Shown here: piece after piece, positions 2,572 through 26,585 of the stretch
Position numbering within the stretch: position 1 is the stretch's first letter
Layout of the letters: the number at the start of each line of letters is the position of its first letter
Assembly: GCA_038245785.1 (NCBI GenBank)
Contig: JBBRSB010000020.1
Coordinates: 21,485-85,484, forward strand
Reading direction: 5' to 3'
Length of the DNA: 64,000 nucleotides
Origin: Gloeobacterales cyanobacterium
Lineage (GTDB): Bacteria > Cyanobacteriota > Cyanobacteriia > Gloeobacterales > PMM-0068
Notes under the pieces: generated by a model
What the model saw: the letters and a program-made list of their open reading frames with translations, nothing else
Database searches by the model: none
Told to the model about the DNA's origin: nothing
Position numbers and translations under genes: made by a program

Positions 2572-2574
2572 GGT

Positions 2575-7662
<5,088 letters not shown>

Positions 7663-7877
7663 AAAAGACCTACGGGAAAATACGGAGAATGTAAAGTGAG
7701 GCAAGCGTATCCAGAAAGTGCTTGATATCTGTCAAAACGAATACTTTATTCACAATTGAGGCTACGTGCCTCATCCGTCTTGGCTCACGTACATAAACCA
7801 CAGTAGAAGAATCGCACTGCACCATACAGTGCAGTCGCAATGACCCATACTCAAAAAGTAAGTATTCAGGCAAAATC
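7663..7877. promoter_or_regulatory. Divergent promoter region between cas10 and csx18-cas1-cas2, with an inverted repeat
   Basis: 215-nt divergent intergenic region. Perfect 7-bp inverted repeat ACTGCAC-N6-GTGCAGT at 7816-7835. Confidence 0.55.
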
Positions 7878-8096
7878 ATGAATTGGGTGAGGCTTTTGCT
7901 GCTTCGTCACGTTTCGGGAGCGGCAGTGAATGGTTTGATTACCCTAGTCATTTTGCTCATTGCTCCTCTGGGGTTAGCGTCCGTTTTGACCTGCACGGCG
8001 TTGATCAGTTTGAGCACTTTGGTCGTGGGTGTAGCGGCAGATGGGGTGCAGTACTGGTTAGAGGATGGCTCTACTGGGATTGACAAGACTCAGTGA
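7878..8096 (+). CDS. csx18: CRISPR-associated small membrane protein Csx18
   Basis: VNGLITLVILLIAPLGL signature; overlaps the cas1 start, as in cyanobacterial III-B loci. Confidence 0.8.
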   Translation: MNWVRLLLLRHVSGAAVNGLITLVILLIAPLGLASVLTCTALISLSTLVVGVAADGVQYWLEDGSTGIDKTQ

Positions 8097-9085
8097 TGGC
8101 AACCCTATATTTGTTGGACCAAGGGTGCCGAGTCGCCCTCAGGGATGAAGCTTTACTGGTTTATCAGCAAACAGACCTGAAACAGACGGTGCCGCTACCA
8201 ACTTTAGAGCGTGTGCTGGTTTTTGGCAGTGCGCATCTGACTACGCCTGTAATCCGAGCCTGTTTAAGACGCGAGGTGGGGATAGGCTATCTATCTCGTC
8301 AGGGGCGCTGCTATGGTCGGATTTTACCGATTCGTTTGGGCTATCGTTCTCTATTTCGGTTGCAACAATCGCTAGGAGCGGAAGCAGCGCTGGGCGCAGC
8401 ACGGGCGATGGTCACCGCCAAGATTCAAAATAGCCGGGTTTTGCTGTTGCGTTCTCAAAGACGAAGACCGCTGCCTGCTCTAGAACAGGCGATTACTTTT
8501 CTAGATTATTTTGCTCAAAAGGCTCGTGAGGCTTTGAGTCTAGAAACTTTACGAGGATATGAAGGGGCAGCGGCTGCTCAGTATTTCCCTGCTTTTGGTC
8601 TAATGCTGACGGAACCAGATTTTGTGATGACCCAAAGAAGTCGTCGTCCCCCGCTGAATCCGGTAAATACACTTTTGAGTTTTGGCTATAGCGTCCTCTG
8701 GAATCATCTTCTCGGACAGATAGAACTGCAGGGATTAGATTCCTATCTGGGGATCTTCCATACAGCCAATGACCGTCATCCAGCTTTAGCTTCTGATTTG
8801 GTGGAGGAGTTTCGTTCACCGATTATTGATTCTTTAGTAGTTTGGCTAATTAATAGTCGAGTAATCCAGGTTATGGATGACTTTGAATTTCGTGATGGGG
8901 GTTGTTTCCTAAATGAAAGAGGAAGGCGCAAGTTTCTCAAGTACTTCATTCAAGAGATGAACGAACTTGTTCAGGTGGATAATTCTATGCTTCCACGTTG
9001 GGCTTTATTGGAGAAGCAGGTGAGCGCTTTCAAAAGGTTTTTGTATCATCCTGAAGAAGATTATCAGCCCTATCGGATACGTTAA
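8093..9085 (+). CDS. cas1: CRISPR integrase Cas1
   Basis: LRGYEGAAAAQYF, NTLLSFGY, GIFH, LASDLVEEFR catalytic motifs. Confidence 0.97.
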   Translation: MMATLYLLDQGCRVALRDEALLVYQQTDLKQTVPLPTLERVLVFGSAHLTTPVIRACLRREVGIGYLSRQGRCYGRILPIRLGYRSLFRLQQSLGAEAALGAARAMVTAKIQNSRVLLLRSQRRRPLPALEQAITFLDYFAQKAREALSLETLRGYEGAAAAQYFPAFGLMLTEPDFVMTQRSRRPPLNPVNTLLSFGYSVLWNHLLGQIELQGLDSYLGIFHTANDRHPALASDLVEEFRSPIIDSLVVWLINSRVIQVMDDFEFRDGGCFLNERGRRKFLKYFIQEMNELVQVDNSMLPRWALLEKQVSAFKRFLYHPEEDYQPYRIR

Positions 9086-9361
9086 ATGCTGTATATTATT
9101 ACCTACGATATTCCCAGTAATAAGCGAAGAAATAAAGTAGCTAAGCTGCTAGAAGGCTATGGTAAAAGGGTGCAGCTTAGTGTTTTTGAGTGCGAATTGC
9201 CGGAGAAGTTATTAATAGAATTAAAGACAAAGCTTCGTAAGAAGGTTGATATGACTGAGGATTCAGTGCGCTTCTATGTCATATCCAGTCATACCTTGGG
9301 TCAGGTGGAAATATGGAATGGACCTCCTGTAGCGGAATCTGCGAAATCGGTAATAGTCTGA
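9086..9361 (+). CDS. cas2: Cas2
   Basis: YIITYDI, YGKRVQLSVFEC, DSVRFY motifs. Confidence 0.97.
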   Translation: MLYIITYDIPSNKRRNKVAKLLEGYGKRVQLSVFECELPEKLLIELKTKLRKKVDMTEDSVRFYVISSHTLGQVEIWNGPPVAESAKSVIV

Positions 9362-9372
9362 CTATGGCTAGA

Positions 9373-9408
9373 ATTGCTTCTTTTCAGAGAGGTCGAACTA
9401 ATGACAAA
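9373..9408 (+). repeat. Solitary degenerate CRISPR repeat after cas2
   Basis: ATTGCTTCTTTTCAGAGAGGTCGAACTAATGACAAA, 27/36 identical to the array repeat. The stem remains pairable through one compensatory change and two G-U pairs. Confidence 0.75.
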
Positions 9409-9464
9409 TCAGGCAAAAAGTTGACGTTAAATCATACAGGTCGATTTAGACCAGGAGATGTGAA

Positions 9465-9710
9465 ATGAGAGCAATTACTGGTGTTTTTATTTTTCTACCT
9501 GCCATGGCCCTCGTGATAGGTATGGGTATCGGTTCGCCACTTTTAGGTACGCTGGCCTGTGTTTTTATAGCATGGCAGGAGGCATCACTTTGCAGCAAAG
9601 TATTTCCTACTGAGTTTCAGCTTCCTGTAACTATAATAATTATGTGCGGAGTTTGGATTTTGGTGCACCAAAAAGAATCTGAAGCAAATAAGGAAAATCA
9701 AGATGTTTAA
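9465..9710 (+). CDS. Small hypothetical membrane protein (81 aa)
   Basis: AGGAG RBS upstream; two to three hydrophobic segments and a charged C-tail. Confidence 0.65.
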   Translation: MRAITGVFIFLPAMALVIGMGIGSPLLGTLACVFIAWQEASLCSKVFPTEFQLPVTIIIMCGVWILVHQKESEANKENQDV

Positions 9711-10042
9711 TCCAATTTATTTCTTTTTCATGAGTGATCAAAGCCTGCTATCCTGAACAGTCAGTAGGTATACAATTTAGCTTCCATGGCATTGATTCCT
9801 TTAGTTTGGCGAGGCTCTCCAAAATTGTGTTCAAACACTTGGCACAGGTCAACCTATTTAACCTCTTTTGGGTTGTTTATCCTGTGGTCAATAATTTTTA
9901 GGGTAGCCGCCATATTTTATGTAGTACCACTTGTCTATTACAGAAGGTTCAATTCCTTCTGACTTAAGAACTTCGGTTGCAGTATGAAAAGGACCTCCCA
10001 CAGCAAAATTTACGGAATTGGCGGTGATTTGATGATGTTTGG

Positions 10043-10221
10043 AGCGATGGGGTCACCAAAAAGCCTAAAGGCTCATTCTTGCGCTGACCCCGTCGATACC
10101 TATCCAGGCAAGACTTTCAGCCATTTTTTTGTGACAAAACCCCCGCTGTACGAGAGAAAATTCAGACCCCGTCGCAAACCGCCTCTAGACACCCGACCTG
10201 GCAAGGGTTTTAATGGAGGCT
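10043..10221 (+). promoter_or_regulatory. CRISPR leader
   Basis: Abuts the first repeat. Duplicated GACCCCGTCG (10086, 10165), an inverted near-copy at 10044-10054, and paired CC(A/T)GGCAAG (10104, 10197). Confidence 0.75.
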
Positions 10222-12355
10222 ATTGCTTCCCTTCGGGGAAGTTGAACTAATGGAAACAATCATTTCAAACTCTCCTATTGTTGTTTTTCAGTATTGCTTC
10301 CCTTCGGGGAAGTTGAACTAATGGAAACTATATTCCATGACAAATCTCCAATGAAAAGAATGAATTCAAAAGAAAAATTGCTTCCCTTCGGGGAAGTTGA
10401 ACTAATGGAAACGACACCTACCAGTCTGAAAAGGAAAGCGCCCGTTCCGGGTTATTGCTTCCCTTCGGGGAAGTTGAACTAATGGAAACTATTTATGCAT
10501 AAAAAGAGAGCGCCCTTCGGTAGTTAAAATTGCTTCCCTTCGGGGAAGTTGAACTAATGGAAACAAGGAAGCAGAATCATCTGCTTCTTTAGATGAGCTT
10601 ATATTGTTAATTGCTTCCCTTCGGGGAAGTTGAACTAATGGAAACTGCTTAAAGCTTTGTCAACCTTCTCGGAGGTTGATATTGCTTCCCTTCGGGGAAG
10701 TTGAACTAATGGAAACAGACCTTCAGGGATAGGCCCTATACATTCTTCCCAGATATTGCTTCCCTTCGGGGAAGTTGAACTAATGGAAACGGTGATTTAG
10801 AAAACCTTGGAGTTCTCCCCAGAGAAAAGACATTGCTTCCCTTCGGGGAAGTTGAACTAATGGAAACAGCCCGCAGCAAAGCTATAATTTCCGTGGTTAC
10901 AATTGCTTCCCTTCGGGGAAGTTGAACTAATGGAAACTACCAAACTTCTGGATTGCTTGGCGAAGTGTGAGACAATTGCTTCCCTTCGGGGAAGTTGAAC
11001 TAATGGAAACTCTCCTACTTCTCAAGAATGGGAAGTGTTATCTGATAAATTGCTTCCCTTCGGGGAAGTTGAACTAATGGAAACACCAAGCGCAATGCCC
11101 AAGTGTACACTTTCTAAAAATGAGCTATACTATTGCTTCCCTTCGGGGAAGTTGAACTAATGGAAACTACCAAGGGTTACATAACCTTTAACCGTCTTAT
11201 TTATTCCATAATTGCTTCCCTTCGGGGAAGTTGAACTAATGGAAACTCTTTTGTAGTCAATCAACGCGTTATCTAGGCATCGATTGCTTCCCTTCGGGGA
11301 AGTTGAACTAATGGAAACTAAACGTGCCCTACTACAGCACCTTTAGGCGTGTAGACATTGCTTCCCTTCGGGGAAGTTGAACTAATGGAAACTTGTAATG
11401 CGGCGCGCCAGAGGACAAGTTTCAGGAATATTTCTTCACTTCGGGGAAGTTGAACTAATGGAAACACCGTAAATTTACTTAGAATTTCACGCATAATAAT
11501 GATTGCTTCCCTTCGGGGAAGTTGAACTAATGGAAACTTTAGGACCGTAGCAGACGGCATAATTTCCGGATAAAGTATTGCTTCCCTTCGGGGAAGTTGA
11601 ACTAATGGAAACCTTGTTATGAGGAACCTCAATGAAAAAGAAGAAGACAATTGCTTCCCTTCGGGGAAGTTGAACTAATGGAAACCGGATAAGGTGCTCT
11701 TCAACATAGTTGATGATGATATTTCGGCATTGCTTCCCTTCGGGGAAGTTGAACTAATGGAAACATCAGCTTCTTCAAACACCTCATCGCCCCATCGTGA
11801 CTCCAATAACCCTATTGCTTCCCTTCGGGGAAGTTGAACTAATGGAAACCAGTTGAGCAATCAGCACAACCAGAATTAACGCCCCATTGCTTCCCTTCGG
11901 GGAAGTTGAACTAATGGAAACTTGCGGAGCGCTTGATAGAGGTCTTCAAACTTCTCAAATTGCTTCCCTTCGGGGAAGTTGAACTAATGGAAACACAGTT
12001 AAAAGTAATTCTGCGCCCAGCATGAAAGCTGCATTGCTTCCCTTCGGGGAAGTTGAACTAATGGAAACTTAAATCTTTCATTGCAGTACAAAAAACAAAA
12101 GGATATTGCTTCCCTTCGGGGAAGTTGAACTAATGGAAACATTAATCAGGTCTTTGGCTACTTGCACTTTGTACACGTATTGCTTCCCTTCGGGGAAGTT
12201 GAACTAATGGAAACAACAGTTACGCCATCACGAGCGAAAGCCTTGATGATATTTTCCTATTGCTTCCCTTCGGGGAAGTTGAACTAATGGAAACAGATAG
12301 TCTTTGTTGAAGGCAATTTCATAATCACCTGTGATTGCTTCCCTTCGGGGAAGTT
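10222..12355 (+). CRISPR. CRISPR array: 28 full repeats, 1 truncated repeat, 28 spacers
   Basis: 36-nt repeat ATTGCTTCCCTTCGGGGAAGTTGAACTAATGGAAAC with a CTTCCC-TTCG-GGGAAG hairpin and GGAAAC 3' end. Spacers about 35-49 nt. The repeat at 11430 has 2 substitutions; the last repeat (12334-12355) stops after 22 nt. Confidence 0.99.
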
Positions 12356-12364
12356 TCGGAAAGC

Positions 12365-12394
12365 TTGCCCGTAGCATGAATTCCGTGCTACTAT
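12365..12394 (+). promoter_or_regulatory. higBA promoter with operator palindrome
   Basis: TTGCCC-N18-TACTAT overlapping the inverted repeat GTAGCA...TGCTAC (12371-12391). Confidence 0.55.
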
Positions 12395-12397
12395 GCT

Positions 12398-12694
12398 ATG
12401 GTGATAGCTTCATTTAAAAATGATGGTGTAGAAGATATCTTCAACGGTGCAGACACTAAAGTTGCTCGTAAAACCTGCCCCATGTCTTTATGGAAAGTCG
12501 CTGCTCGAAAACTCGATCAGATTGACTCCGTTGCAACATTAAATGAATTGCGTCTACCGCCAGGTAACTTCTTAGAAGCCTTGTCCGGTGATCTTAAAGG
12601 GCAGCATAGTATCCGTATCAACGACCAGTACCGAATCTGTTTTGTATGGTCAGAGCAAGGACCTGCTCAAGTAGAAATTGTTGATTATCACTGA
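12398..12694 (+). CDS. higB: HigB/RelE-family toxin (plasmid maintenance killer type)
   Basis: LEALSGDLKGQHSIRINDQYRICFVW...IVDYH signature. Confidence 0.93.
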   Translation: MVIASFKNDGVEDIFNGADTKVARKTCPMSLWKVAARKLDQIDSVATLNELRLPPGNFLEALSGDLKGQHSIRINDQYRICFVWSEQGPAQVEIVDYH

Positions 12695-12715
12695 ATCGTT
12701 ATAGAGAGTACCGTC

Positions 12716-13021
12716 ATGGTTCGCATTCCTACACACCGTTCCCCCACGCATCCCGGCGAGATGTTGCTAGAAGAGTTCCTAAACCCCACGGGCTTGACGC
12801 AGCGTGAACTTGCCGATGCTATTCACGTCCCGTATCAGCGCATCAATGAGATCATCAATGGACGTCGAGGGATTACACCAAGTACCGCACTTCGGCTAGA
12901 GAAATTCTTTGGAATGTCGGCAGGCTTCTGGATGAATCTTCAACTCCGCTGGGACCTCTATTATGCCCAACAGACTGAGCAAGAAACGCTCAAATCCATT
13001 CACCGCTATGTATCAGCTTGA
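12716..13021 (+). CDS. higA: HigA antitoxin (HTH XRE)
   Basis: HPGEMLLEEFL, RINEIINGRRGIT, FWMNLQ motifs. Confidence 0.93.
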   Translation: MVRIPTHRSPTHPGEMLLEEFLNPTGLTQRELADAIHVPYQRINEIINGRRGITPSTALRLEKFFGMSAGFWMNLQLRWDLYYAQQTEQETLKSIHRYVSA

Positions 13022-13047
13022 TGCCTAGAGGTTGTTCGGTAAACCGA

Positions 13048-13144
13048 TAATGGAAACCCATTAAATCCTCCAATACTGGTGGACTTCCGATCTGTTTTTT
13101 TCTGGTCTTATTCTTCTGCTCAGTGAAGTTGAATTGCTAGAAAG
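13048..13144 (+). CRISPR. Relict repeat-spacer-repeat unit
   Basis: TAATGGAAAC (repeat nt 27-36) at 13048-13057, a 51-nt spacer-like stretch, then a degenerate repeat at 13109-13144 (23/36 identity, GAAGTTGAA core intact). Confidence 0.55.
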
Positions 13145-13170
13145 TTCTGGAAAATTTTACGTTAACTGTT

Positions 13171-13198
13171 TCCCCCCAAAGTTGGGGGGCTAGGGGGC
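13171..13198. repeat. Short GC-rich palindromic element of the cyanobacterial dispersed-repeat type
   Basis: CCCCCCAAAGTTGGGGGGCTAGGGGG hairpin. Confidence 0.45.
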
Positions 13199-13504
13199 GA
13201 ATTTATCACTCTTCTAGAAGATGATGTGCCTACCCATGAGGGAGCTAAACTCCATGCAGACAGTGCTCCAAGACTTGAAGAGTTAGGAGGTTCTGAGCCT
13301 CAAGCACAAGATATTCCTCGCCGTCGTTATGACAGCTAGACGAGCATAATGATTCCTGCTGATACCCTCAACCATTCCATTCCACCAATGTAAAACTTCT
13401 GGGCGATTGACCCTTTTCCATCCTTGATGCTTTGACGTGATTGATTTAGAGTGGCTTGCAATAACCTAAGCGTTGGGTTAAGCTGGGCGTGTGCAGGAGT
13501 GAGT

Positions 13505-13750
13505 ATGCCAACGGTTCTTAGGAAACAAGGTTTTCGAGTCGTCATTTATTCCAACGATCACTTGCCTTCTCCTGTCCACGTTTTTAAAGGAAGCGGTGAA
13601 GTGCGAATTGAGTTAGGAGATGAGGAATCGGCCCCTAAGCTATTGACCGTCAGTGGACAAATCAGCGACAAAGATGTAGGCAAAGCGCTGTATCTCGTGA
13701 AGGAACACCAAGTCAAATTACTAGCAAAATGGAGAGAAATCCATGCGTAA
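13505..13750 (+). CDS. DUF4160 family putative toxin
   Basis: MPTVLRKQGFRVVIYSNDH..VHV..WREIH; overlaps the downstream DUF2442 gene. Confidence 0.85.
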   Translation: MPTVLRKQGFRVVIYSNDHLPSPVHVFKGSGEVRIELGDEESAPKLLTVSGQISDKDVGKALYLVKEHQVKLLAKWREIHA

Positions 13751-14225
13751 CGATAATCTTGTAATTGACGCAGCGTTGCAATCGCAGATCAATAAAGCTC
13801 GTCAAGCAGGTGAAACGCTAGATGAAAATGAACCGCGTGCGGTAAAGGCCTGGTACGAACTCATCTCAACAAGGGTTTTCATTGAACTAAGGAATGGCGT
13901 TGTGATTGGGTTTCCTTTTAAACTGCTGCAAGGATTAGAATCGGCAACTCCTGAGCAGATTGCAGAAGTTGAAGTCACACCCTCTGGCTATGGTCTTCAC
14001 TGGGAAAGTCTGGATGTAGACCTAGGAGTACCGCAACTGGTTGCGGGTATTTTTGGGACAAAAGCCTGGATGACAGAATTAGGACGTCTAGGTGGACAGG
14101 CAAAATCAGCCGCGAAAGAGAAAGCTGCTCGCGAAAATGGTAAGCGTGGAGGCCGACCTCGGAAGCCTGAAACTGTGCAGGAGGATACTACTAGACCGAT
14201 AAAACATTCGATTGCTTCCCTTTGA
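13743..14225 (+). CDS. DUF2442 family putative antitoxin
   Basis: EVTPSGYGLHWESLDVDL and AARENGKRGGRPRK motifs. Confidence 0.85.
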   Translation: MRNDNLVIDAALQSQINKARQAGETLDENEPRAVKAWYELISTRVFIELRNGVVIGFPFKLLQGLESATPEQIAEVEVTPSGYGLHWESLDVDLGVPQLVAGIFGTKAWMTELGRLGGQAKSAAKEKAARENGKRGGRPRKPETVQEDTTRPIKHSIASL

Positions 14226-14228
14226 GGG
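14211..14228 (+). repeat. 5' half of a CRISPR repeat overlapping the DUF2442 stop codon
   Basis: ATTGCTTCCCTT is a 12/12 match to the repeat start, followed by TGAGGG. Confidence 0.6.
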
Positions 14229-14371
14229 TGCGAAGAGTCGGTGGGATGTGCCGAAGATTCTTGATAGGTATGTGGAGAGCAAGATGAATAGTGAATTAAT
14301 TATGCATTTGACATAATGAAGAAAGGCGAAGGTATTCGGACGGTCGAGACATTTTAAGAGAGGTCGGGAGA

Positions 14372-15034
14372 ATGGTAGCAGCGCTCGATTCGATTTCAGT
14401 TGCAGAAATTGATTTACAGGAAGGCAATGTGCTGGTGCTGCATGATGTTTCGTGGGAGCGCTATGAGGCGATCGTGGCTACCTTACAAACTCGCCACAAC
14501 TATCGAACTGCGTATTTAGATGGAGTGTTGGAAATTATGGCTCCGATGCCTGCCCATGAGCGTCCCCATCGCACTATTGGCTATTTTGTGACTGCATTAC
14601 TCGATGCGGAAGAACGAGACTGGGAGGATTTTGGGGCGACGACGTTTCGCAAGAAGGAAAAGCGGGCGGGGTTGGAGCCGGATACTTGTTTTTACGTGGA
14701 TGAGAATGCGCGAGTTGTTCGCGCTTGTATGGAGCAGATGGATTTGGCGGTCTATCCGCCACCGGATTTGGCAATTGAAGCGGATGTCACTTCTGGGACA
14801 ACGTTAGAAGTGTACTTAAGATTGCAGGTGCCGGAGGTTTGGATTTGGCGCAAGAATGAGCTAAACATTAATCTGTTGCAAAATGGGAAATATGTGGAAT
14901 CGCAGCAGAGTCAGGTATTTCCCAACTTTCCGATTCAGGAGTTGATTCCGCAGTGGCTCGATCGGGCGTTGCAAGATGGTACGAGTAAAGCCCTTCGCGA
15001 TATACGAAAGTTGTTGATCAAGGCAACGTTGTAA
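14372..15034 (+). CDS. Uma2 family endonuclease
   Basis: LEIMAP..HE, GLEPDTCFY, PPDLAIEAD, VPEVWIW motifs. Confidence 0.92.
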   Translation: MVAALDSISVAEIDLQEGNVLVLHDVSWERYEAIVATLQTRHNYRTAYLDGVLEIMAPMPAHERPHRTIGYFVTALLDAEERDWEDFGATTFRKKEKRAGLEPDTCFYVDENARVVRACMEQMDLAVYPPPDLAIEADVTSGTTLEVYLRLQVPEVWIWRKNELNINLLQNGKYVESQQSQVFPNFPIQELIPQWLDRALQDGTSKALRDIRKLLIKATL

Positions 15035-15049
15035 TTTCATGTGGCGCCT

Positions 15050-15262
15050 CTGAGCGAATTACGAATCCGTGCCTCGTTGCGGAGTTTAGCGAGAATAGAT
15101 GGGACGTTAGCTTGAGAGGTCATAGGTGAGAGCCTGAAGAATCGGGCGGAGTCTGCGTTCGGCACCACACATCCGCGCAGTTTCGGTGAGTTTTAGGAGG
15201 TTCGGTTTCGGCTTGCGACGCTTGAGATAGTTCTTGAGTCCCTCCAGGAAGAGGAAGTCGAA
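15050..15262 (-). pseudogene. Remnant of a type IV TA pair (AbiEi C-terminus plus AbiEii N-terminus)
   Basis: Manual translation: LEGLKNYLKRRKPKPNLLKLTETARMCGAERRLRPILQAL (stop at 15107), overlapped by MTSQANVPSILAKLRNEAR starting at 15123. Confidence 0.55.
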
Positions 15263-15353
15263 TCAATGGAAGCTAACGGGTGCCGTTACTTTACAAGGTC
15301 GAGGATGGGTTGTTGTATCAGATTACGCCCTGCCGCAGGTTTGAAACCATCCC

Positions 15354-16019
15354 CTACAACCAGTTGCCTTTCCAATCAAAATATTCGAGTGGGGCAAGTC
15401 GTTTTTTGTAATCGTAAGCCGAAGGCTCGAGTGTGGCGTATCCAGGGTAATAAAATGTTTTGCCCAGCGCAATTGAATACTTAATACTGCATAAAATTAA
15501 GTACACGCCAAGGCTGTGTTTTGATTCCTTTGGGTCGTAAATCGAGTAGATGCTCGATGTGCTGCTTGCGCCAATGTCGAGGAAGGTCACGCCAATCAAT
15601 CGTCCTTCTTTGAAAAGCGCAAGTTCTTTGGTTTCGCATGGCACTCGAGCGGGATCAAATCCGAGAAAAGAATAGAGCGAATCGGGAACGTTTTCTGTGA
15701 AGCGCTGCCTGTGCAGGGCAAACAGTTTGCGTTTTTCGAGGTCAATGAGCGCGTCACGGATGACCAATTCAAAGGAGGCATTTCGTTTCAGCACTCGAGC
15801 TTGACTGTTGCTAGGCTCAAAATGCTCGAGCCGCATTCTGAGCGGCATCACGGTTTTGAAGCCGTGAGCCTCCATCATGCGACTATAACGAAAAAAGTAC
15901 GAACCAAAATGCCGCCAACCTCCAGCCCAAGCACGATCCATCAATTCTGGACTGGCAAGCTCGAGTTCGCCCGATTCGTCGATGTTTGGCACGGTCATAA
16001 GTTTTGGAGTATCGCTCAA
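15354..16019 (-). CDS. Arginyl-tRNA-protein transferase family protein (Ate/Bpt)
   Basis: GWRHFGSYFFR, SSIYSIYDP, SLGVYLIL, YYPGY, YDYK motifs. Confidence 0.85.
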   Translation of the reverse strand: MSDTPKLMTVPNIDESGELELASPELMDRAWAGGWRHFGSYFFRYSRMMEAHGFKTVMPLRMRLEHFEPSNSQARVLKRNASFELVIRDALIDLEKRKLFALHRQRFTENVPDSLYSFLGFDPARVPCETKELALFKEGRLIGVTFLDIGASSTSSIYSIYDPKESKHSLGVYLILCSIKYSIALGKTFYYPGYATLEPSAYDYKKRLAPLEYFDWKGNWL

Positions 16020-16103
16020 GCCTCAGTGTTTTTCTCCCAGGGCAAGATTATCATGTCACGCTCAAGCGTCCGTTCGTGACCTTTTCCCTCCTTATTATTT
16101 GAT

Positions 16104-16317
16104 TGAGGTAACACCATCTGGCTATGGTCTTCACGGGGAAAGTCTGGATCTAGGAGTACCAGAACTGGTTGCAGGTCTTTTTGGTACACAAACCTGGATG
16201 AAAGAGTTAGGACGTCTAGGCGGACAGGTAAAATCAGCCGCGAAGGAGAAAGCTGCTCGCGAAAATGGCAAGCGTGGAGGCCGACCTCGGAAGCCTGAAG
16301 CTGTGCGGAAGAGTTGA
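16104..16317 (+). pseudogene. 5'-truncated second copy of the DUF2442 antitoxin
   Basis: Closely parallels 13970-14180 at DNA and protein level but lacks the N-terminal half. Confidence 0.8.
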
Positions 16318-16376
16318 ACGCAGGGTTTACCATACTAAAACGTAGACTTGGCCTAACCGCAATCTATCACGTAACT

Positions 16377-16703
16377 TCAATCTGCAATCAACTTACTGCT
16401 TACTAGACGATTTAGACTTATGCCCTGTTCAGCCGCTCGGGTCGCCAGTTCCCGATGCTGTTCAGGAGGAATTCTGACCATGAACCTGCCGCTGTATTGT
16501 TTTTTAGATAAGGGGGTTGGAATAGGCTCATTGTGAGCCGCTAAATCAAGAATGCATTCTTGTACTAGAGCAACAATTCCAGAGAAGGCTTTTTGGTGAT
16601 CCTTATCCAGCCAACTCATGCCAGGAAATTCAGCACATAAGCCAACGAACTCTTCATCCTCTTCAGACCAGAACACTCGGTAGGTATAAAATTTAGCGTC
16701 CAT
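16377..16703 (-). CDS. hicB: HicB family antitoxin
   Basis: YTYRVFWSEEDEEFVGLCAEFP and a YSGRFMVRIPPEQHR ribbon-helix-helix tail; ATG at 16703. Confidence 0.9.
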   Translation of the reverse strand: MDAKFYTYRVFWSEEDEEFVGLCAEFPGMSWLDKDHQKAFSGIVALVQECILDLAAHNEPIPTPLSKKQYSGRFMVRIPPEQHRELATRAAEQGISLNRLVSSKLIAD

Positions 16704-16948
16704 CACATTGATTCCTTTTTCTTGATAGCGGCTAAGACTTGCTTTACTTGGTACGGTTTTCCCATGCCTTTTTTCGGCTGGATGTTGACGTATGGCTCTC
16801 CTTCCCAAAGCGTCCGATAAAAGCGATGGCTCCCGCTGCTTTGTCGAGGTTCTCCAAAATAGTGGTCACACACTTTGCACAAGTCAGAGAACTTAATGCC
16901 TTTTGGGTTATTCTCCATGCTGGCAACAATTTTTTGGATATTAGCCAT
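16703..16948 (-). CDS. hicA: HicA family toxin
   Basis: NPKGIKFSDL, GSHRFY, KPYQVKQVL motifs. Confidence 0.88.
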   Translation of the reverse strand: MANIQKIVASMENNPKGIKFSDLCKVCDHYFGEPRQSSGSHRFYRTLWEGEPYVNIQPKKGMGKPYQVKQVLAAIKKKESM

Positions 16949-16958
16949 ACTTTATATG

Positions 16959-16980
16959 GTATCAATATTAGTATCAATAT
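16959..16980. promoter_or_regulatory. Direct-repeat operator upstream of hicA
   Basis: GTATCAATAT at 16959-16968 and again at 16971-16980. Confidence 0.45.
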
Positions 16981-17060
16981 ATCATCACTAAAAGCTCAAT
17001 AGCCACTGAAACCATAGCGTCAGTAGTCTTGGTAAATCTAGCTAAGTGTTAATCTGGTCA

Positions 17061-17273
17061 TGAACTTGCTGATGCCATTCACGTCCCGTATCAGCGCATC
17101 AATGAGATCATCGATGGGCGTCGAGGGATTACACCTAGCTCTGCGCTTCGGCTAGAGAAATTCTTCGGAATGTCGGCAGGCTTCTGAATGAATCTCCAGT
17201 TGCGATGGGACCTCTATGACGCCCAAGAGACTGAGTAGGAAGCACTCAAATCTATTTGTTATACACAGCTTGA
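17061..17273 (+). pseudogene. higA: higA pseudogene (3' part)
   Basis: Parallels 12805-13021; in-frame stops TGA 17185 and TAG 17236; 5' end absent. Confidence 0.85.
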
Positions 17274-17328
17274 GAAATTTAGTTAAGATTGCGAGCGGGA
17301 GCTTAAATTAACTCTTCAGAGGCAAACC

Positions 17329-18666
17329 GTGAGTTTATCGAGACGAGGTTTTTTTACTTTAGCGGGTTCGAGTACTGCTAGTGTGATTTTAGCTGCACCT
17401 TTGAAAAACTTGTATGCTAAAACTTTGTCTAAACAATCGATTAAGGGAAGAGGTTTTGGAAAACTTATCCCCGATCCTAATGGCATCTTAGATTTACCCA
17501 AAGGGTTTAAGTATAGAGTGCTCTCTAAAACTGGAGAGATGATGAGCGATCGCACCAAAGTACCAGATAAAAAAGACGGTATGGCGGCTTTTCCTGGGAC
17601 AAACGGTACGACTATTTTGGTGAGAAATCACGAACTCAAGCCAGATCCAACCCAAAAAATAGCAATCGTCAATGCCGCAGATTCTTGTAAATATGATAAA
17701 TTAGCGCCAGGGGGAACAACTACTTTAGTTATCGACAATAACTATCAAGTTCTCCAACAATACGTATCTCTAAGTGGTACTATCCGCAACTGTTCTGGTG
17801 GGACGACTCCCTGGGGTTCTTGGATTAGTAGCGAAGAAGATGTTTCTACTCCGATTACTGTTGCTAATAATTCAAGCGATCGCATGAAAGAATCTTTTCA
17901 AGTATCTCTCAAACACGGATATAACTTTGAAGTTCCTTCTCATGGAAAAGTTACTACTCCAGTTCCTTTAAAAGCAATGGGCAGATTTCGACATGAAGCC
18001 ATCGCTGTCGATCCGCAAACTGGATATATTTACCAAACTGAGGATCGAGAAGACAGTTGTATCTATCGTTTCATCCCTACACAAGCAGGAAAATTGGAAG
18101 CAGGTGGAACTTTAGAAGCTTTGGTAATTGACGGAATGCCAAAGATGAACACATCTGTTGATTTTCCTATGGACGAACCGAAAAAAGTTACATGGATCAG
18201 ACTAGAAGATGTCGATCCCAACGAAGATACTCTACGTCAAGAAGCACAATTTAAAGGTGCAGCAATTTTCAGACGTGGAGAAGGAATGTGTTACGGCAAT
18301 GGCGAAATTTTTTGGACTTGTACTAATGGTGGTAAAGCGAAAGTGGGTCAAATTTTTCGTTACAATCCTAAAGCCGAAACAGTCGAACTCTTTGTTGAGT
18401 CTCCCAGCTCTGAGGTTTTAGACTTCCCTGACAACTTGATTCTATCTCCTTTCGGTCATTTAATTGTTTGCGAAGATGGTAAAGGCGAACAGTTCGTTAC
18501 GGGAGTAAATCCCCAAGGAGAATGTTACCATTTCGCACGTAATGCTTTAAATAAAGCAGAGTTTGCAGGGGTCTGTTTTTCTCCAGATGGGAAAACAATG
18601 TTTGTCAATATTTACGAACCTGGTATTACTCTGGCTGTTTGGGGAAATTGGCAAGCTGTGTTGTAG
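17329..18666 (+). CDS. phoX: Tat-exported alkaline phosphatase PhoX (DUF839)
   Basis: SRRGFF Tat motif; NCSGGTTPWG, MGRFRHEA, PDNL, EFAGVCFSPDG motifs. Confidence 0.9.
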   Translation: MSLSRRGFFTLAGSSTASVILAAPLKNLYAKTLSKQSIKGRGFGKLIPDPNGILDLPKGFKYRVLSKTGEMMSDRTKVPDKKDGMAAFPGTNGTTILVRNHELKPDPTQKIAIVNAADSCKYDKLAPGGTTTLVIDNNYQVLQQYVSLSGTIRNCSGGTTPWGSWISSEEDVSTPITVANNSSDRMKESFQVSLKHGYNFEVPSHGKVTTPVPLKAMGRFRHEAIAVDPQTGYIYQTEDREDSCIYRFIPTQAGKLEAGGTLEALVIDGMPKMNTSVDFPMDEPKKVTWIRLEDVDPNEDTLRQEAQFKGAAIFRRGEGMCYGNGEIFWTCTNGGKAKVGQIFRYNPKAETVELFVESPSSEVLDFPDNLILSPFGHLIVCEDGKGEQFVTGVNPQGECYHFARNALNKAEFAGVCFSPDGKTMFVNIYEPGITLAVWGNWQAVL

Positions 18667-18731
18667 TAATTTTTCTCAGTACAGCAACCTTCCCAGAAAA
18701 ACAATTCTGCTATTGAACAGGAATAAGGACG

Positions 18732-18767
18732 ATTACTTCTCTTGGGAAAAGTTGAACTAATGGAAAC
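18732..18767 (+). repeat. Solitary near-intact CRISPR repeat
   Basis: ATTACTTCTCTTGGGAAAAGTTGAACTAATGGAAAC, 31/36 identity; the 3' 19 nt are perfect. Confidence 0.9.
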
Positions 18768-19112
18768 TCTTGGCTCCCTTGAGATTGGGACTAGTGCTTT
18801 CGAACACCTATTTCCGACATTTTGCGATCGAAACTGAGGGCGACACCGGGTGAAGTAGCTGCTTGCGATTGACTTGATACTGAATATAAAGTTAAACTGC
18901 CCAGTGTAATGGCCGTTGCACTAAGGCCTAGCATCAGTTTTTGTCTGGAGAACATTGATTATCCAATTGATTGGCATCATTTTGCAATAAAGTGACAAAA
19001 TAATCTAGCCTATTGAAATACTTTCTTAAGTAGACCGCCTGGATCGCCCTATAATTTATTTCTTGGCTCTCTTTGCCAAAGAGGACTAGCGGCTTTGATA
19101 AACGCTCAGCAC

Positions 19113-19480
19113 TTGACACTCCCACGGCTGCAGCTTGTGCTTTGCACGGGCTAAGCCCTACGCGAAGCATAAGCGCGTGGGATTCTTGTTTGAACGAGCT
19201 ACCTTTCTAAATTTTAATCCCCACAAGGGAATTAGCCCCAAAAAGCCCACTCCGAAGGGTAGGCTCTAGCGCAAAAGAAGGCAAGACTATTCGTTCATGT
19301 ACTCGTTTAACTGGTGCCCAAGCCCACCATCAGGGTTATGGATCATGGGTATCCGGAAAATCTTTTCAAGCTTCCAAGAGTCTTAGCTAAATCTGCCTGG
19401 ACAAACACCTGTGAAACAAGTGGCCGAACCCTATGCGGTCGTCCATCCCAAAGTGCAGGTGAGCAGAGGTCTCACCAATA
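19113..19480 (-). mobile_element. IS200/IS605-family right end with a structured non-coding remnant (no tnpA/tnpB ORF)
   Basis: Minus strand reads AGAATCCCACG...CGTGGGAGTGTCAA, the hairpin-plus-TCAA end typical of cyanobacterial IS605 elements. The inner boundary is approximate. Confidence 0.6.
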
Positions 19481-19784
19481 GCAAGCTAGCTTTATAGGCA
19501 AAGATGAGGGGCTAATTAAAGTGGAATCTGACTGAACCTTTGAAAACTTAGCAGAGTAAAAAAAACACAAAATTGAGGTGTTCCTCAGCTTAAAACTGAT
19601 AAAAACAGAAGCCTAGAAGAAATGAATTGGTGTTTGCATCTAAAACCATTGCCATGACACTTCAATCAGACATTAACAAGCCTCTTGTCATAAATGTTTG
19701 CTAGAAGCACATAAAGTATCTTTATTGTGACATCATCGTTCAAAATTGGCATTATTCTATTCATAAATTTGTTGAGGAGCCTCC

Positions 19785-20456
19785 ATGCGAAAGTTAATTC
19801 GAGGTTTGCGCGAGTTTCAGGATAACTATTTCCCATCACATTTAGAACTGTTTGAGAAGCTGGGCATGGAGCAAAAGCCCAGAGTTCTATTTATTACCTG
19901 TTCAGATTCGCGGATTGTGCCAAACCTGCTTACCAAAGCGGATGTGGGCGAACTGTTTATTATCCGCAATGCGGGTAATATCATCCCTCCCTACGGGACC
20001 TTGAGTGGCGAGGGTGCAACCATAGAGTATGCCATTCAATCGCTTGAAATTGAGCAAATCATCGTCTGTGGACATACCCACTGTGGAGCCATGAACGGCT
20101 TATTAAAGCTGGACCAACTGCGTGAAGAAATGCCGATTACCTATCAATGGCTAAAACTGGCTGAGGGAACAAGACGATTGGTGAAAGAAAACTACACGCA
20201 CCTCATGGATAAAGAATTGCTGGAAGTCACCAGTGCGGAAAATGTATTGACGCAGATCGATAATCTTAAAACCTATCCGGTAATACGGTCGCGCCTTTAC
20301 CAAGCCCGGCTAAATATTTATGGTTGGGTGTATAACCTCGAAACGGGTCAAGTACTGGCCTATGACTCAGTGAGTCATTCCTATGTGCCGCCTCAACATC
20401 AGTTAGTAGATGAATTGCCTGAGCCATCTTTACCTTCAGATTTGTCAAATCTGTAA
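19785..20456 (+). CDS. Beta-class carbonic anhydrase (IcfA/CcaA-like)
   Basis: CSDSR, RNAGN and GHTHCGA zinc-ligand motifs. Confidence 0.93.
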   Translation: MRKLIRGLREFQDNYFPSHLELFEKLGMEQKPRVLFITCSDSRIVPNLLTKADVGELFIIRNAGNIIPPYGTLSGEGATIEYAIQSLEIEQIIVCGHTHCGAMNGLLKLDQLREEMPITYQWLKLAEGTRRLVKENYTHLMDKELLEVTSAENVLTQIDNLKTYPVIRSRLYQARLNIYGWVYNLETGQVLAYDSVSHSYVPPQHQLVDELPEPSLPSDLSNL

Positions 20457-20542
20457 TCATCTATGGGAGTTGCTACCCATTGACTTCTATCGCGGACAGC
20501 CCTACCCGTCAGAGGTTCTGGGGTGTTAACTATTGGATACGC

Positions 20543-21928
20543 CTAGTCTAATTTTTCAAACCTTGCCTGAAAAAATCTAAGGTACTTTGGTTCATAAATC
20601 ATTTTTAATCCTTTTATATGGTGGCGTTGTTCATATACCCTACCTGCCGATTCAGCAATCACATCCATGTGTGCCTGGGTATACACACGCCGGGGAATGG
20701 TAAAACGGACCAGTTCCAGTTTGGGATAGTAGTTTTCACCATTAGCTTTTCTGCCAGAAGAAACAATTCCACGTTCCATGGTTCTTACACCAGAATCCAG
20801 ATACACTTCTGCAGCCAATGTTTGAGCAGGGAAATCATCCTGCGGGATATGGGGTAAAAACTTTTTAGCATCCACAAAAATGCCATGTCCACCGATGGGT
20901 TTTACGATCGGTATTTCGTATTCCATCATTTTTTTACCAAGATAAATAACCTGTCCCACCCGTGCACGGATATGGTCATCGGATACACTCTCCTTTATAC
21001 CAATTGCCATAGCTTCCATATCTCTTCCTGTCAGACCACCATAGGTATGCAAGCCCTCATACACCACCACCATGTTTCTTGCTTCTTCAAAAACATCCCA
21101 GTCATTAATGGCAAGAAATCCACCGATATTCACCAATGCATCTTTTTTAGCGCTCATCGTGGCACCATCGGTGTACGAACAGATTTCCTTGACAATTTCT
21201 TTTATGGGTCTGTCCCGATATCCTTCTTCTCTTTGTTGAATAAAGTAAGCATTTTCTGCCACTCTGGTCATATCGTGAATGATGCGGATGCCATGCTTTT
21301 CAGTCAAGGCTCTTAGCTCTTTCAAGTTTTGCATACTGATAGGCTGACCACCTGCCATGTTCACACTGGTGGCCATACTGATATAGGGAATTTTTTTTGC
21401 ACTATATTTTTTGATAAGCCCTTCTAATTTATCTAAGTTGACATTCCCTTTGAACAAAGATTCACTCTCCGGGTCATGAGCTTCATCAACAATTACATCT
21501 TCAAATTTTCCACCAGCCAGTTCCTGGTGCAGACGGGTAGTCGTGAAGTACATATTGCCAGGAATAATATCGCCTTTCTTAATTAAAACCTTTGATAAGA
21601 TGTTTTCGGCTCCACGGCCCTGGTGGGTAGGGATGAAATATTTGTAGCCATAAATCTCTTTTACTGTTTCTTCTAAGTGATAAAAATTACGGCTGCCTGC
21701 ATAGGCTTCATCACCCATCATCATTCCCGCCCACTGGTGATCACTCATTGCAGAGGTGCCGCTATCGGTGAGTAAATCAATATAAACATCTTCTGACTTG
21801 AGAAGAAAGGTATTATAGCCAGCTTCTTGCAAAGCACTTTTTCTTTGGGCCAAAGTTGTCATCTTTAGCAACTCAACCATTTTTATTTTATAAGGTTCGG
21901 CCCAGCTTCTATTAGAATGCTCACTCAT
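20543..21928 (-). CDS. tpl: Tyrosine phenol-lyase
   Basis: DLLTDSGT and SAKKD (PLP lysine). YFTTT and LRFF are the TPL-type residues; tryptophanase has FDTT and LRHF. Confidence 0.9.
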   Translation of the reverse strand: MSEHSNRSWAEPYKIKMVELLKMTTLAQRKSALQEAGYNTFLLKSEDVYIDLLTDSGTSAMSDHQWAGMMMGDEAYAGSRNFYHLEETVKEIYGYKYFIPTHQGRGAENILSKVLIKKGDIIPGNMYFTTTRLHQELAGGKFEDVIVDEAHDPESESLFKGNVNLDKLEGLIKKYSAKKIPYISMATSVNMAGGQPISMQNLKELRALTEKHGIRIIHDMTRVAENAYFIQQREEGYRDRPIKEIVKEICSYTDGATMSAKKDALVNIGGFLAINDWDVFEEARNMVVVYEGLHTYGGLTGRDMEAMAIGIKESVSDDHIRARVGQVIYLGKKMMEYEIPIVKPIGGHGIFVDAKKFLPHIPQDDFPAQTLAAEVYLDSGVRTMERGIVSSGRKANGENYYPKLELVRFTIPRRVYTQAHMDVIAESAGRVYEQRHHIKGLKMIYEPKYLRFFQARFEKLD

Positions 21929-22015
21929 TGTTTTAGATTTTAATTTAATGAAATTTAGTCTAGCAAAAAATATCTCAACATCGGTGCTTCTTTAATAATT
22001 TTAATTCTTTTATTT

Positions 22016-22052
22016 ATTGCTTCCCTTCGGGGGAAGCTGAATTAATGAGAAC
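22016..22052 (+). repeat. Solitary near-intact CRISPR repeat
   Basis: ATTGCTTCCCTTCGGGGGAAGCTGAATTAATGAGAAC: one extra G and 4 substitutions relative to the array repeat. Confidence 0.9.
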
Positions 22053-22161
22053 TTAGTTATTAATTGAATAATAGTTTGCTATTAGTTAGTGATTAAATAA
22101 GTAGATAAAATAAGATAATAACGGACACAATACCCATCTTGAACTGGGAGATGACTACACG

Positions 22162-22701
22162 ATGACTTTTACTTTTGAATCTGCTATTGAGGAAGCTCAA
22201 AGTCTCCTAGACTCAGAGAATTTAACAGAAGCAGAGCTAGTAGCTAGAACTAAAACGCTTCTAGAGACAGAGGTGGGTGCTCGGGGTTTATTTGTGGTCT
22301 ATCTGACGGGAGATACTCCCTTGGCAGACCAAGCTCCGGATTGGTTGCTCACCCTCTTAGCACAGGCTCCAGATTCAGCGTCTGAACTGTTGGTGAAAAA
22401 TTTGGCAATGTCTACAGCAACAGGCCTTGCCCATGAAGCCCAAGGGAATCTAGAACAGGCTGATGGCTCTCGGCAAGTGGCACAGCGCACCACCGCACTC
22501 CTACAGGCTCTAAGTCATCCTCCTTTTGGTCCTGTTCCCGCTTTGGAGCAAAGAAAAACGGCTATGCTTCAGACCCTAAAAGAAAAACAGGGAGTGTACA
22601 GTCCTTTCCTAGATCGTTGGGGCTATAATCCCGCTCAACGGGAAGCGATTGGTCGTGCGTTTCAAAACGTCACTGATCCCCCTAAGACGGATCTGGCTTG
22701 A
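22162..22701 (+). CDS. Conserved cyanobacterial hypothetical protein
   Basis: GARGLFVVYLTGD, LLVKNLAMS and FLDRWGY motifs recalled from cyanobacterial hypotheticals. Confidence 0.75.
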   Translation: MTFTFESAIEEAQSLLDSENLTEAELVARTKTLLETEVGARGLFVVYLTGDTPLADQAPDWLLTLLAQAPDSASELLVKNLAMSTATGLAHEAQGNLEQADGSRQVAQRTTALLQALSHPPFGPVPALEQRKTAMLQTLKEKQGVYSPFLDRWGYNPAQREAIGRAFQNVTDPPKTDLA

Positions 22702-22939
22702 ACAGGTCTGGATTGATCAGGCTGTCGATGTCAGCAGGAGGCTCTACCACACCGCCTGAGGTATAGATGGCCGCCGTCTCCATAATCGTGTCCCAGTCCG
22801 TGTTGGTAATATACTCGCGGGCAGCCTTGGCTGATTCTAAATGGGGGCATTGGTCCCCTAAAACACAACCATTCACGCAGACTTCTGCACAATTCACCGT
22901 CTTGGGATCGGTCACTTGGATAACCTCTTTTTGAGTCAA
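22682..22939 (-). CDS. Small Cys-rich cyanobacterial hypothetical protein
   Basis: NCAEVCVNGCVLGDQCPH motif; follows the Rrf2 gene on the same strand. Confidence 0.65.
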   Translation of the reverse strand: MTQKEVIQVTDPKTVNCAEVCVNGCVLGDQCPHLESAKAAREYITNTDWDTIMETAAIYTSGGVVEPPADIDSLINPDLFKPDPS

Positions 22940-22957
22940 CGCTATTTTGCCACGCTT

Positions 22958-23389
22958 TTAAATGTAGTACATCAACGTTGCTTGGCGGAGCACTCGATTC
23001 TCACAGAGATCTTTAAGACTGACAGTCCTGAGCGTTTTTTCTACCTGACAGGTTGCTTTAGTCCAGGCTTCGCGGATTAGGGTCAGTTCCAGGGTGGATT
23101 CCGTCGGAGTGGTTTGTTCACACTCTTCTCCTTCGATGGTTTCCATGATTTCCCATAGGCTAATGGCACTGGGAGACCGAGACAGAAGATACCCTCCCCG
23201 CGCCCCTCTCTGGCTTCTCACCAAACCTCTACGGCGTAAAGTTGCCAGCAGTTGTTCCAGATAACGGTCAGGAATATTTTGACGACTGGCTAATTCTTTT
23301 ATCTGCAAAGGCTCGCCTGCTTCATAGGCAAGTGCCAATTCGAAGACAGCAAGCAGGGCATAGGTGCCACGGCTGGAAAGTTCGAGCAT
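22958..23389 (-). CDS. Rrf2 family transcriptional regulator (CymR-like, lacks the IscR three-Cys motif)
   Basis: YLEQLLATLRRRGLVRSQRGARGGYLL winged HTH. Confidence 0.9.
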   Translation of the reverse strand: MLELSSRGTYALLAVFELALAYEAGEPLQIKELASRQNIPDRYLEQLLATLRRRGLVRSQRGARGGYLLSRSPSAISLWEIMETIEGEECEQTTPTESTLELTLIREAWTKATCQVEKTLRTVSLKDLCENRVLRQATLMYYI

Positions 23390-23518
23390 GGGGCAATTAT
23401 ACCCCGCAAATCAAGTAGGGATTTAGGACTTGAGAGATTTGCTATCTTGGACACCGAAGCAAATTCATGGGGCTAGTGCCACACCTCATGGTACAACCCC
23501 GCTCAGCAGTACGACCTT

Positions 23519-26333: not shown

Positions 26334-26585
26334 ATGCAATCTGCGTTACACATCACTACCAAAGTGTTACCCGGAAATCGGGTCGAAATTCAGCTTCCTT
26401 CCGGCTCCGAAGGGCAAGAAGTGAATGTATTCATTGTTTTGTCAACGGCAGCCTTACCGCTAAACCCACAAAATCGGACTGACCAGCTGGCCAAAATGGC
26501 TGAAGATTCCGATATTCAGTCAGAGCTGGCTGCAATCAATGCCGACTTTGCGATCGCTCAAATGGATGGCCTAGGCATTGAATGA
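26334..26585 (+). CDS. Putative antitoxin upstream of the PemK/MazF toxin
   Basis: 83 aa with an ATGA overlap onto the toxin gene; acidic C-terminus. Confidence 0.7.
   Translation: MQSALHITTKVLPGNRVEIQLPSGSEGQEVNVFIVLSTAALPLNPQNRTDQLAKMAEDSDIQSELAAINADFAIAQMDGLGIE

Follow-up and report, generated by a model that had tools for sequence, protein, structure and literature searches.

How do single, complete genes come to stand between copies of a CRISPR (clustered and regularly interspaced short palindromic repeats) repeat? The question is raised by a type III-B CRISPR-Cas locus in a stretch of 64,000 nucleotides from an early-branching cyanobacterium of the Gloeobacterales (assembly GCA_038245785.1), hereafter the window, which corresponds to G000:C20:21485-85484 (G000, genome of the source; C20, contig). 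Besides the main array, repeat copies are dispersed among cargo genes up to position 22052, and the original prediction was that the trailer of one ancestral array, running from 9373 to 22052, had absorbed about 9.5 kb of gene-sized inserts. The results presented here suggest that whole genes of other bacteria are at times taken up by the CRISPR memory machinery. The repeat unit used as reference was that at 10222-10257 (36 nt, + strand).

Single genes between CRISPR repeats

The gene tpl at 20543-21928 (- strand), encoding a Bacteroidota-type tyrosine phenol-lyase (TIGR02618 over cut-off), was found to occupy 1,386 of the 1,475 bp between a decayed 3' part of a repeat (20516-20540, + strand) and an orphan repeat (22016-22052, + strand; 32/37 with one gap, hairpin retained), which formed the right border of the tpl unit. 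Its stop codon was 2 bp from the left repeat border. The best 120 homologues listed were 86-90% identical, and those named were from Bacteroidota, mostly Chitinophagaceae; among 301 cyanobacterial genomes tpl matches were found in only five, the other four at ≤71% identity. The DNA upstream of Bacteroidota tpl (69-75% DNA identity) was too distant for mapping of the insert ends. The proposed capture was open to challenge by relatives carrying the same cargo here without an array; none came to light, and the donor-like loci of tpl and phoX were without repeats (0 matches in 24 homologue loci, 0 significant in 6).

When metagenomes were scanned for the repeat pattern, five loci were obtained, four of them distinct (L184 is the L185 locus in another assembly), and gene-sized DNA lay between repeats in all five. 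In three of the four distinct loci the flanks, housekeeping or other, were 76-80% identical to G000 genes. Further cases were found with a covariance model (CM) in genomes of the order. In total there were nine inserts between co-oriented repeats, each with one whole open reading frame (ORF): that of tpl in the window and eight in relatives, in which the gene capture at repeats proposed for the window thus recurs. The metagenome inserts measured 453 bp in L181, 1,048 bp (59% GC, guanine plus cytosine) in L182, 922 bp (61% GC) in L183, and 406 and 481 bp in L185, the last two separated by a 37-nt spacer. The covariance model yielded inserts of 451 bp (G002:C131) and 1,035 bp (G002:C149, an ion channel gene with a decayed left repeat) in a genome of the same genus as G000, with proteins labelled Gloeobacterales, and one of 1,231 bp (59% GC) with a quinone oxidoreductase gene, beside a 39-nt spacer (G005:C51). 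The bracketing repeat was in each case that of the host itself; in G005 it is different in sequence. Repeats were near-complete on both sides in six of the nine inserts, and partial or decayed on one side in L183, G002:C149 and the tpl unit.

With lengths of 406-1,475 bp the inserts fall outside the 30-50 nt taken as spacer length; ordinary spacers of 37-40 nt adjoin them in L183, L185 and G005. Their GC content was 0.34-0.61, compared with 0.46-0.51 in the flanks. The nearest named homologues of the G005, L183 and L182 genes were proteobacterial in the sets searched (plasmids only for L183 and L182), and no common motif or terminal inverted repeat was seen at the insert ends by inspection. 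The start of the L183 insert presumably resembles the end of an upstream AraC-type gene. A complete gene of the observed length would be contained in a randomly drawn fragment of equal size with a probability of 0.00005-0.065 (simple ORF calls on G000). In L185 an ORF was flanked by 6 and 4 bp alone, so there was no room for a split old spacer. Selection acting once the DNA had been captured accounts best for this tight fit of the genes. Seven of the nine genes were co-oriented with the repeat, a 7-to-2 bias that was not significant. In the two that were opposed to it (tpl and the ion channel gene) the upstream repeat was the more decayed one, which would fit escape from type III self-targeting, an anecdotal match of two cases.

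Orphan repeats in G001, G007, G008 and G011 for which a second repeat was not found, or which lay at a contig edge, were excluded from this count. Further G001 orphans stood beside genes of unusual composition (C21, L282:8699-8938; C50:7041; C329:337; C115:110), with partners not found or contig ends reached. At G001:C77:13269-14501 (L041:8270-9502) all that was left of the cas locus was 57 bp of cmr with one repeat, a single spacer and a cut repeat; next to these came genes for a HigB-type toxin and a helix-turn-helix (HTH) protein. The same short element end was observed after a repeat cut at ~16 nt in two genomes (L183:80-110 and L053:5930-5975), with exact copies absent from G000; it possibly belongs to an insertion sequence (IS) targeting the repeat loop.

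Repeat copies and cargo genes in the window

The six repeat copies claimed outside the main array were all present, all on the + strand. In an ungapped scan against the repeat unit, the copies at 9373-9408, 13109-13144 and 18732-18767 matched at 27/36, 23/36 and 31/36 positions, respectively. The blastn-short scores were 26 for 18732, 23 for 22016 and 19 for 9373; 40 shuffled repeats gave 0.1 matches per genome at a score of ≥18, and these three copies are far beyond chance. The copies at 13109 and 14211 scored only 13, the genome-wide chance level (39.7 shuffled matches per genome). By a profile built without the G000 orphans, 13109 reached 17.9 bits (0.07-0.2 expected per genome), and its CM E-value was 0.024. 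When 15 hand-chosen non-coding segments were compared with GC-matched genome segments, p≤0.03 was obtained in 5/15 on the + strand and in 0/15 on the - strand. Two repeat pieces that the original prediction had missed, 15255-15273 (+ strand) and 20516-20540, both had p=0.0007 against GC-matched segments, the latter being missed by the covariance model. The 3' 10 nt of a repeat at 13048-13057 (+ strand) was marginal alone (p=0.029); it may be what remains of repeat 29 on the far side, or else belong to the end of another, decayed copy (13031-13057, CM E=1.1).

A split repeat was also recognized. Its 5' half at 14211-14227 (+ strand; p=0.002), comprising the 5' 12 nt at 14211-14222 and matching at 15/17 to 14227, gave a 36-nt repeat at 30/36 when joined to the 3' half at 15255-15273, with GAGG at both junctions. 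No equivalent split pair was found elsewhere in the genome, nor when 12 shuffled repeats were used, the thresholds having been chosen after the case was seen. The degenerate repeat at 13109 was followed by a multi-copy host hairpin at ~13171-13201. A reading of 13058-13108 as a true spacer was rejected, as it contains a multi-copy host hairpin (a short dispersed repeat). The candidates 19572-19606 (CM E=2.3) and C12:104244 (15.4 bits) were not counted as repeat copies.

As predicted, no significant repeat copy was present in the window beyond 22052 (best CM E=0.79). Nor were copies scattered genome-wide in both orientations: blastn-short and the profile gave one clear orphan off contig C20, at G000:C5:54778 (L002:7779-7814; 27/36). 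Its sequence resembled the G002-type variant more than the repeat of G000 itself, and its surroundings held Uma2, hicB, HTH and toxin-antitoxin remnants, the hicB copy being 87% identical to that of the window; an attC-like site was seen by eye near L002:10065-10125. The exact repeat had 0 matches in the genome-contig collection, and the repeat family pattern had 0 in viral contigs.

By gene content the locus is an ordinary type III-B system, with cas1-cas2, a leader and a regular array all present. The effector genes (206-7704, - strand; Pfam, TIGR02577) were cas10/cmr2, cmr3, a RAMP gene in the cmr4 position, an ORF of 132 amino acids (aa) in the cmr5 position and a cmr6/cmr1-like fusion. 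The signature gene cas10/cmr2 reached 176 bits with TIGR02577 against a cut-off of 79.4; cmr3 and two RAMP matches were found by Pfam, the cmr6 and cmr1 matches were below cut-off, and the 132-aa ORF had no family match. The adaptation module of csx18, cas1 and cas2 (Pfam/NCBIfam) was at 7878-9361 (+ strand). Its cas1 was the single one found in G000, and the Cas1 was 79% identical to that of G002 and retained the conserved E, H and D positions, which we take to be catalytic. In G000, G001 and G002 cas6 was not found, one family (PF10040) having been searched in these incomplete genomes; cas6 is not known from the RNase E-dependent III-Bv variant.

The main array (10222-12355, + strand) had 28 full 36-nt repeats, 28 spacers of 34-49 nt and a 29th repeat cut after 22 nt. 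Its leader (10045-10221, + strand) was a near copy of that of a second array upstream on the same contig (G000:C20:17243-18242 or 17064-18242; L001:15580-16800), which had 12 near-perfect repeats and two decayed ones. Beyond the second array, which was absent from the G002 site, lay a WYL gene and then a 580-aa ORF of no known family. A simple array finder gave no other CRISPR repeat family in G000, none of the 39 G000 spacers was self-targeting (best match 19/20 nt), and promoter and terminator scans gave counts at chance level. Between cas2 and the leader lay an insert (9409-10044, unstranded) with an 81-aa ORF (9465-9710) and remnants of a hicB region, 74-86% identical to 16668-16964.

The copy at 9373 was a solitary degenerate repeat, separated from cas2 by 11 bp and situated upstream of the leader; in G002 the leader was directly 3' of cas2, with no intervening insert or solitary repeat. 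Therefore a single ancestral array from 9373 to 22052 is not supported. Repeats do mark cargo borders. The claim that all of the ~9.5 kb consists of repeat-bounded inserts went too far: tpl alone had a repeat at either end, a repeat was split by Uma2 and probably also by higBA, the only repeat border of phoX was on its right, and no bracket of their own was seen for carbonic anhydrase, hicB or the remnants of DUF2442 and higA.

Of the cargo labels, higB, higA, DUF4160, DUF2442, Uma2, Ate/Bpt, hicB, phoX, carbonic anhydrase and tpl were confirmed by Pfam or NCBIfam; the AbiE remnant and hicA had no family match, and neither had the ORF at 18934-19170, near the claimed IS605 end. The higB-higA toxin-antitoxin pair (12398-13021, + strand; Pfam/NCBIfam) was directly 3' of the cut 29th repeat. 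It was followed by the DUF4160 and DUF2442 genes (13451-14225, + strand; Pfam), a Uma2-family gene within the split repeat and then a remnant of a gene without family match (14372-15034, + strand), and an Ate/Bpt-like aminoacyl-protein transferase gene (15354-15998, - strand; Pfam/NCBIfam), whose named homologues among the matches listed were non-cyanobacterial. The region 16103-17256 (unstranded) held a DUF2442 remnant, hicB (16377-16808) with its probable partner and a higA remnant, and no repeat piece was found in it.

For phoX (17329-18666, + strand; Pfam) the DNA was 76-77% identical to genes of another cyanobacterial family. The 65 bp from its stop to the 18732 repeat aligned weakly with the flank in one donor-like genome (p=0.0065); the next 65 bp did not align (p=0.28). 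The donor-like 3' flank thus extended to the base preceding the repeat. A candidate left repeat at 17287-17312 (p=0.066) was rejected, as it aligned with donor-like upstream DNA. The beta carbonic anhydrase gene (19785-20456, + strand; Pfam) was in part 77% identical to a G001 gene located elsewhere.

Housekeeping genes were said to resume after 22052, and the conserved hypothetical gene on the right flank (22162-22701, + strand), present in 26/31 genomes, agrees with this; the kinase at 23519, missing from G002, and a MazF-like toxin at 26582 do not. The former, a Ser/Thr kinase gene (23519-24916), lay between rrf2 and recF, and the latter, with a small upstream ORF, at 26334-26929. Insertions without repeats thus continued to the right of 22052.

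Contigs of four sequencing runs (X1, X2, X3 and X5; X1 may be the source run) were aligned to 7000-24000 of the window. Misassembly was rejected: source-run contigs covered 12268-24000 at ~60x with no differences. In X3 and X5, from two other studies, contigs spanned tpl, the repeat and the 22162 gene, and cas2 was followed by a 9373-type repeat at ~90% identity. In X2 the tpl homology broke off at 22019, where four bases of the repeat had been covered, and the 187 bases left of the tpl stop included a 35-nt piece that closed with the repeat 3' end; the carbonic anhydrase gene was placed after tpl, not before it as in the window. An empty allele, in which the array would abut the 22162 gene, had been looked for and was not found: in G001 and G002 leuB and another gene preceded the 22162 gene, with no array there.

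Origin of the bracketed genes

It appears reasonably likely that the III-B Cas1-Cas2 of this lineage occasionally integrates gene-sized DNA, that useful genes are kept as ordinary spacers decay, and that small modules later split repeats. The resident Cas1-Cas2 would integrate 0.4-1.5 kb of foreign DNA at a repeat and duplicate it, leaving a repeat-gene-repeat unit; repeat duplication is a described outcome of Cas1-Cas2 integration in the part of the source available (PMC11656645). The inserts have a full host repeat at either side, ends that are unrelated, donors from different phyla and normal spacers as neighbours, all as Cas1-Cas2 integration would leave them. Pieces with a whole useful gene would then be retained, as the gene fit suggests, and neutral 35-49-nt spacers would be lost by inter-repeat recombination. 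Lone decaying repeats would be left at gene borders, with tpl as the clearest case and phoX half-preserved. Small toxin-antitoxin, Uma2, IS-like and hairpin elements would afterwards have inserted into old repeats and split them, a pattern that was observed. The units would also be reshuffled by recombination, a different order having been shown in one relative, and the 9373 copy would be a separate solitary repeat before the leader.

Capture by a Cas1 fused to a reverse transcriptase (RT) was rejected, the single cas1 not being fused to one. Eleven RT matches were found elsewhere in G000 and none in G005; those of G000, on C89, C112, C116, C131, C134, C137, C140, C145, C2 and C29, mostly small contigs, are probably group II introns.

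A more far-reaching version, which we put forward only tentatively, is that the array doubles as an integron-like gene trap. Cas1-Cas2 would take up whole genes across phyla as oversized spacers; co-oriented genes would be transcribed together with the array and set free where the repeats are cleaved; opposed genes would lose the upstream repeat and so escape type III self-targeting, and recombination between repeats would shuffle the units.

Several observations weigh against capture by Cas1-Cas2. The prediction had called for a survey of III-B arrays for cargo; repeat-bounded units were seen in kin of G000 and in G005, and the III-B arrays of G003, G006 and G010 were regular, with no gene-sized gaps. 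Such gaps were also absent from the other-type arrays of G002, G003 and G005, the largest gap in all these comparison arrays being 178 bp, and no orphans were found in the 15-40 kb surrounding the arrays of G003 and G006. In a comparison of 80 of at least 123 related-repeat loci (58 assemblies by record-name count), 68 loci had arrays and 23 of these 68 had an orphan, mostly a single solitary repeat 3' of cas1-cas2; long leaderless gaps (724 and 1,101 bp) occurred in only one genome and were not gene-filled. Within the sample the gene-sized pattern is confined to the genus-level kin of G000 and to G005, the only second lineage, and it is thus narrow although the same Cas1 chemistry is widespread. 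The cases are not independent, since most are kin with one repeat variant. The nine were selected by the possession of two repeats, 3/9 ORFs had no family match, and no near-identical donor was found that would allow exact mapping of both insert ends. In the window itself only tpl was bracketed on both sides, by a decayed 25-nt piece on the left that the covariance model missed; the left repeat of phoX was absent, the thresholds for the split repeat were set with the case in view, and no gene-sized spacer stood at the leader end among the 39 ordinary G000 spacers.

The strongest alternative, which we regard as rather unlikely, is a repeat-targeted insertion without Cas proteins, in which the repeat is a landing site for host recombination after DNA uptake or for some trans-acting recombinase, for example the integron integrase that the genome encodes. 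Repeats were demonstrably split or cut, at 14211/15255 with GAGG at both junctions and at 12355 before higBA, and cut repeats also occurred in L183, G001:C77 and G001:C24. The order of units differed in X2, and G000 has a full IntI at C2:322-1260; the GTTGAAC of the repeat would, as we assume, fit the integron core consensus GTTRRRY. However, such an insertion splits the repeat, whereas in L181, L182, L185, G002:C131 and G005 each side has a full one, and the donor-like loci offer no repeat for recombination. A crude scan that detected attC-like sites on C25 and C38 gave none in 9300-22200, and no IntI over cut-off was present in G002 or G005.

Ordinary decay is less probable still. A defence-island hotspot beside an old array would have received unrelated illegitimate insertions, leaving repeats as passive fossils. 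About half of the cargo had no repeat border, gaps of this kind in these genomes often hold toxin-antitoxin and Uma2 genes (in G002 Uma2-like DNA preceded the 22162 gene, with no array), and similar remnant regions were found on C5 and C12. Arrays can be split by mobile elements or prophages. Fragmentation of cyanobacterial arrays, with orphan repeat copies away from cas genes, is described in the portion of the source at hand (10.1101/2020.04.14.041012). Unlike there, what separates the repeats here is a single non-mobile gene, flanked by full repeats. The ORFs also fit the repeat borders tightly (2-6 bp in tpl and L185), the donor-like flank of phoX ended at the repeat, and there were nine recurrences in two families, compared with no gene-filled gaps in the 80 comparison loci.

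It is highly improbable that the orphans are solitary repeats retained for a regulatory role, as crlRNA/CreTA-like RNAs acting on adjacent toxin or cargo genes. Repeats on both sides of a gene would be left unexplained. The hairpin pairs were retained in 94.9% of cells across 13 repeat copies, and 9373 and 22016 still fold the stem; yet covariation was weak, the paired share being reached by 55/500 shuffles, and 18732, 13109 and 20505-20540 do not fold a canonical stem. The 40 nt 3' of eight orphans had no genome match >16 nt except multi-copy host hairpins, a search that partial pairing would escape. Beside defence genes crlRNAs are described for type I-C, as far as the accessible part of the source goes (10.1101/2024.12.27.630466).

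For 9373 alone a regulatory RNA may be the right reading: by its pre-leader position, its hairpin and its likeness in position to solitary repeats after cas2, this copy may be different in kind. A solitary repeat was present after cas1-cas2 in 11/12 annotated loci of other cyanobacteria (77/86 ORFs scanned), and 9373 shares their position and the GTCGAA variant. At these loci (L060, L065, L066, L068, L071, L088, L098, L099, L103, L110 and L113) it was mostly the GAAGTCGAA variant, following cas1-cas2 and one or two small ORFs and followed by ~20 nt and a hairpin. The neighbouring Cas1 of L060, L071 and L103 lacked the E or H that the window Cas1 keeps. The solitary repeats of other cyanobacteria are possibly regulatory RNAs beside an inactive Cas1.

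Known systems and biological meaning

As in spacer acquisition by Cas1-Cas2, the foreign DNA here has a copy of the host repeat at either end and adjoins normal spacers. In contrast, the inserts are 0.4-1.5 kb instead of 34-49 nt, carry complete genes, metabolic or membrane-related, that stem from cellular donors, and persist longer than ordinary spacers. Integrons and CALIN elements also have single-gene units with one repeated site between them, mostly co-oriented (here 7/9), with toxin-antitoxin genes mixed in and variable order; here, however, the site is a CRISPR repeat and not attC, and IntI is on C2 with none at the locus. No attC-like site was given in 9300-22200 by the script mentioned above, whose sensitivity was low and which missed the one seen by eye on C5. 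Elsewhere in G000 such sites were observed at C25:45716 and at C38:23915 and 24746.

In casposons, as in the explanation proposed here, long DNA is inserted by an enzyme of the Cas1 family and the target is duplicated, according to what is available of the source (PMC8730458). Unlike casposons, the inserts have no casposase, polymerase or terminal inverted repeats, and they are unrelated single genes with unrelated ends. The solitary units crlRNA, CreTA and Racr resemble the lone degenerate repeats beside cas and toxin genes, and 9373 fits them by position; however, no target match was found here, and the cases described in the accessible parts of the sources are of type I and do not bracket genes. 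By length the inserts are not ordinary spacers, and by the features looked for the locus is neither an integron nor a casposon. No description of gene-sized spacers was found in the literature, as covered by titles and abstract openings, with incomplete coverage of subscription papers and supplements.

CRISPR-Cas is usually viewed as a barrier to horizontal transfer. If the explanation by Cas1-Cas2 capture is true, adaptation would be a route of gene gain across phyla for which neither homology nor a mobile element is needed, and it would leave a readable scar, repeat-gene-repeat, which array finders drop as over-long spacers. It would also provide a natural Cas1-Cas2 that inserts kilobase DNA at a defined site, and would give the orphan repeats of cyanobacteria one origin.

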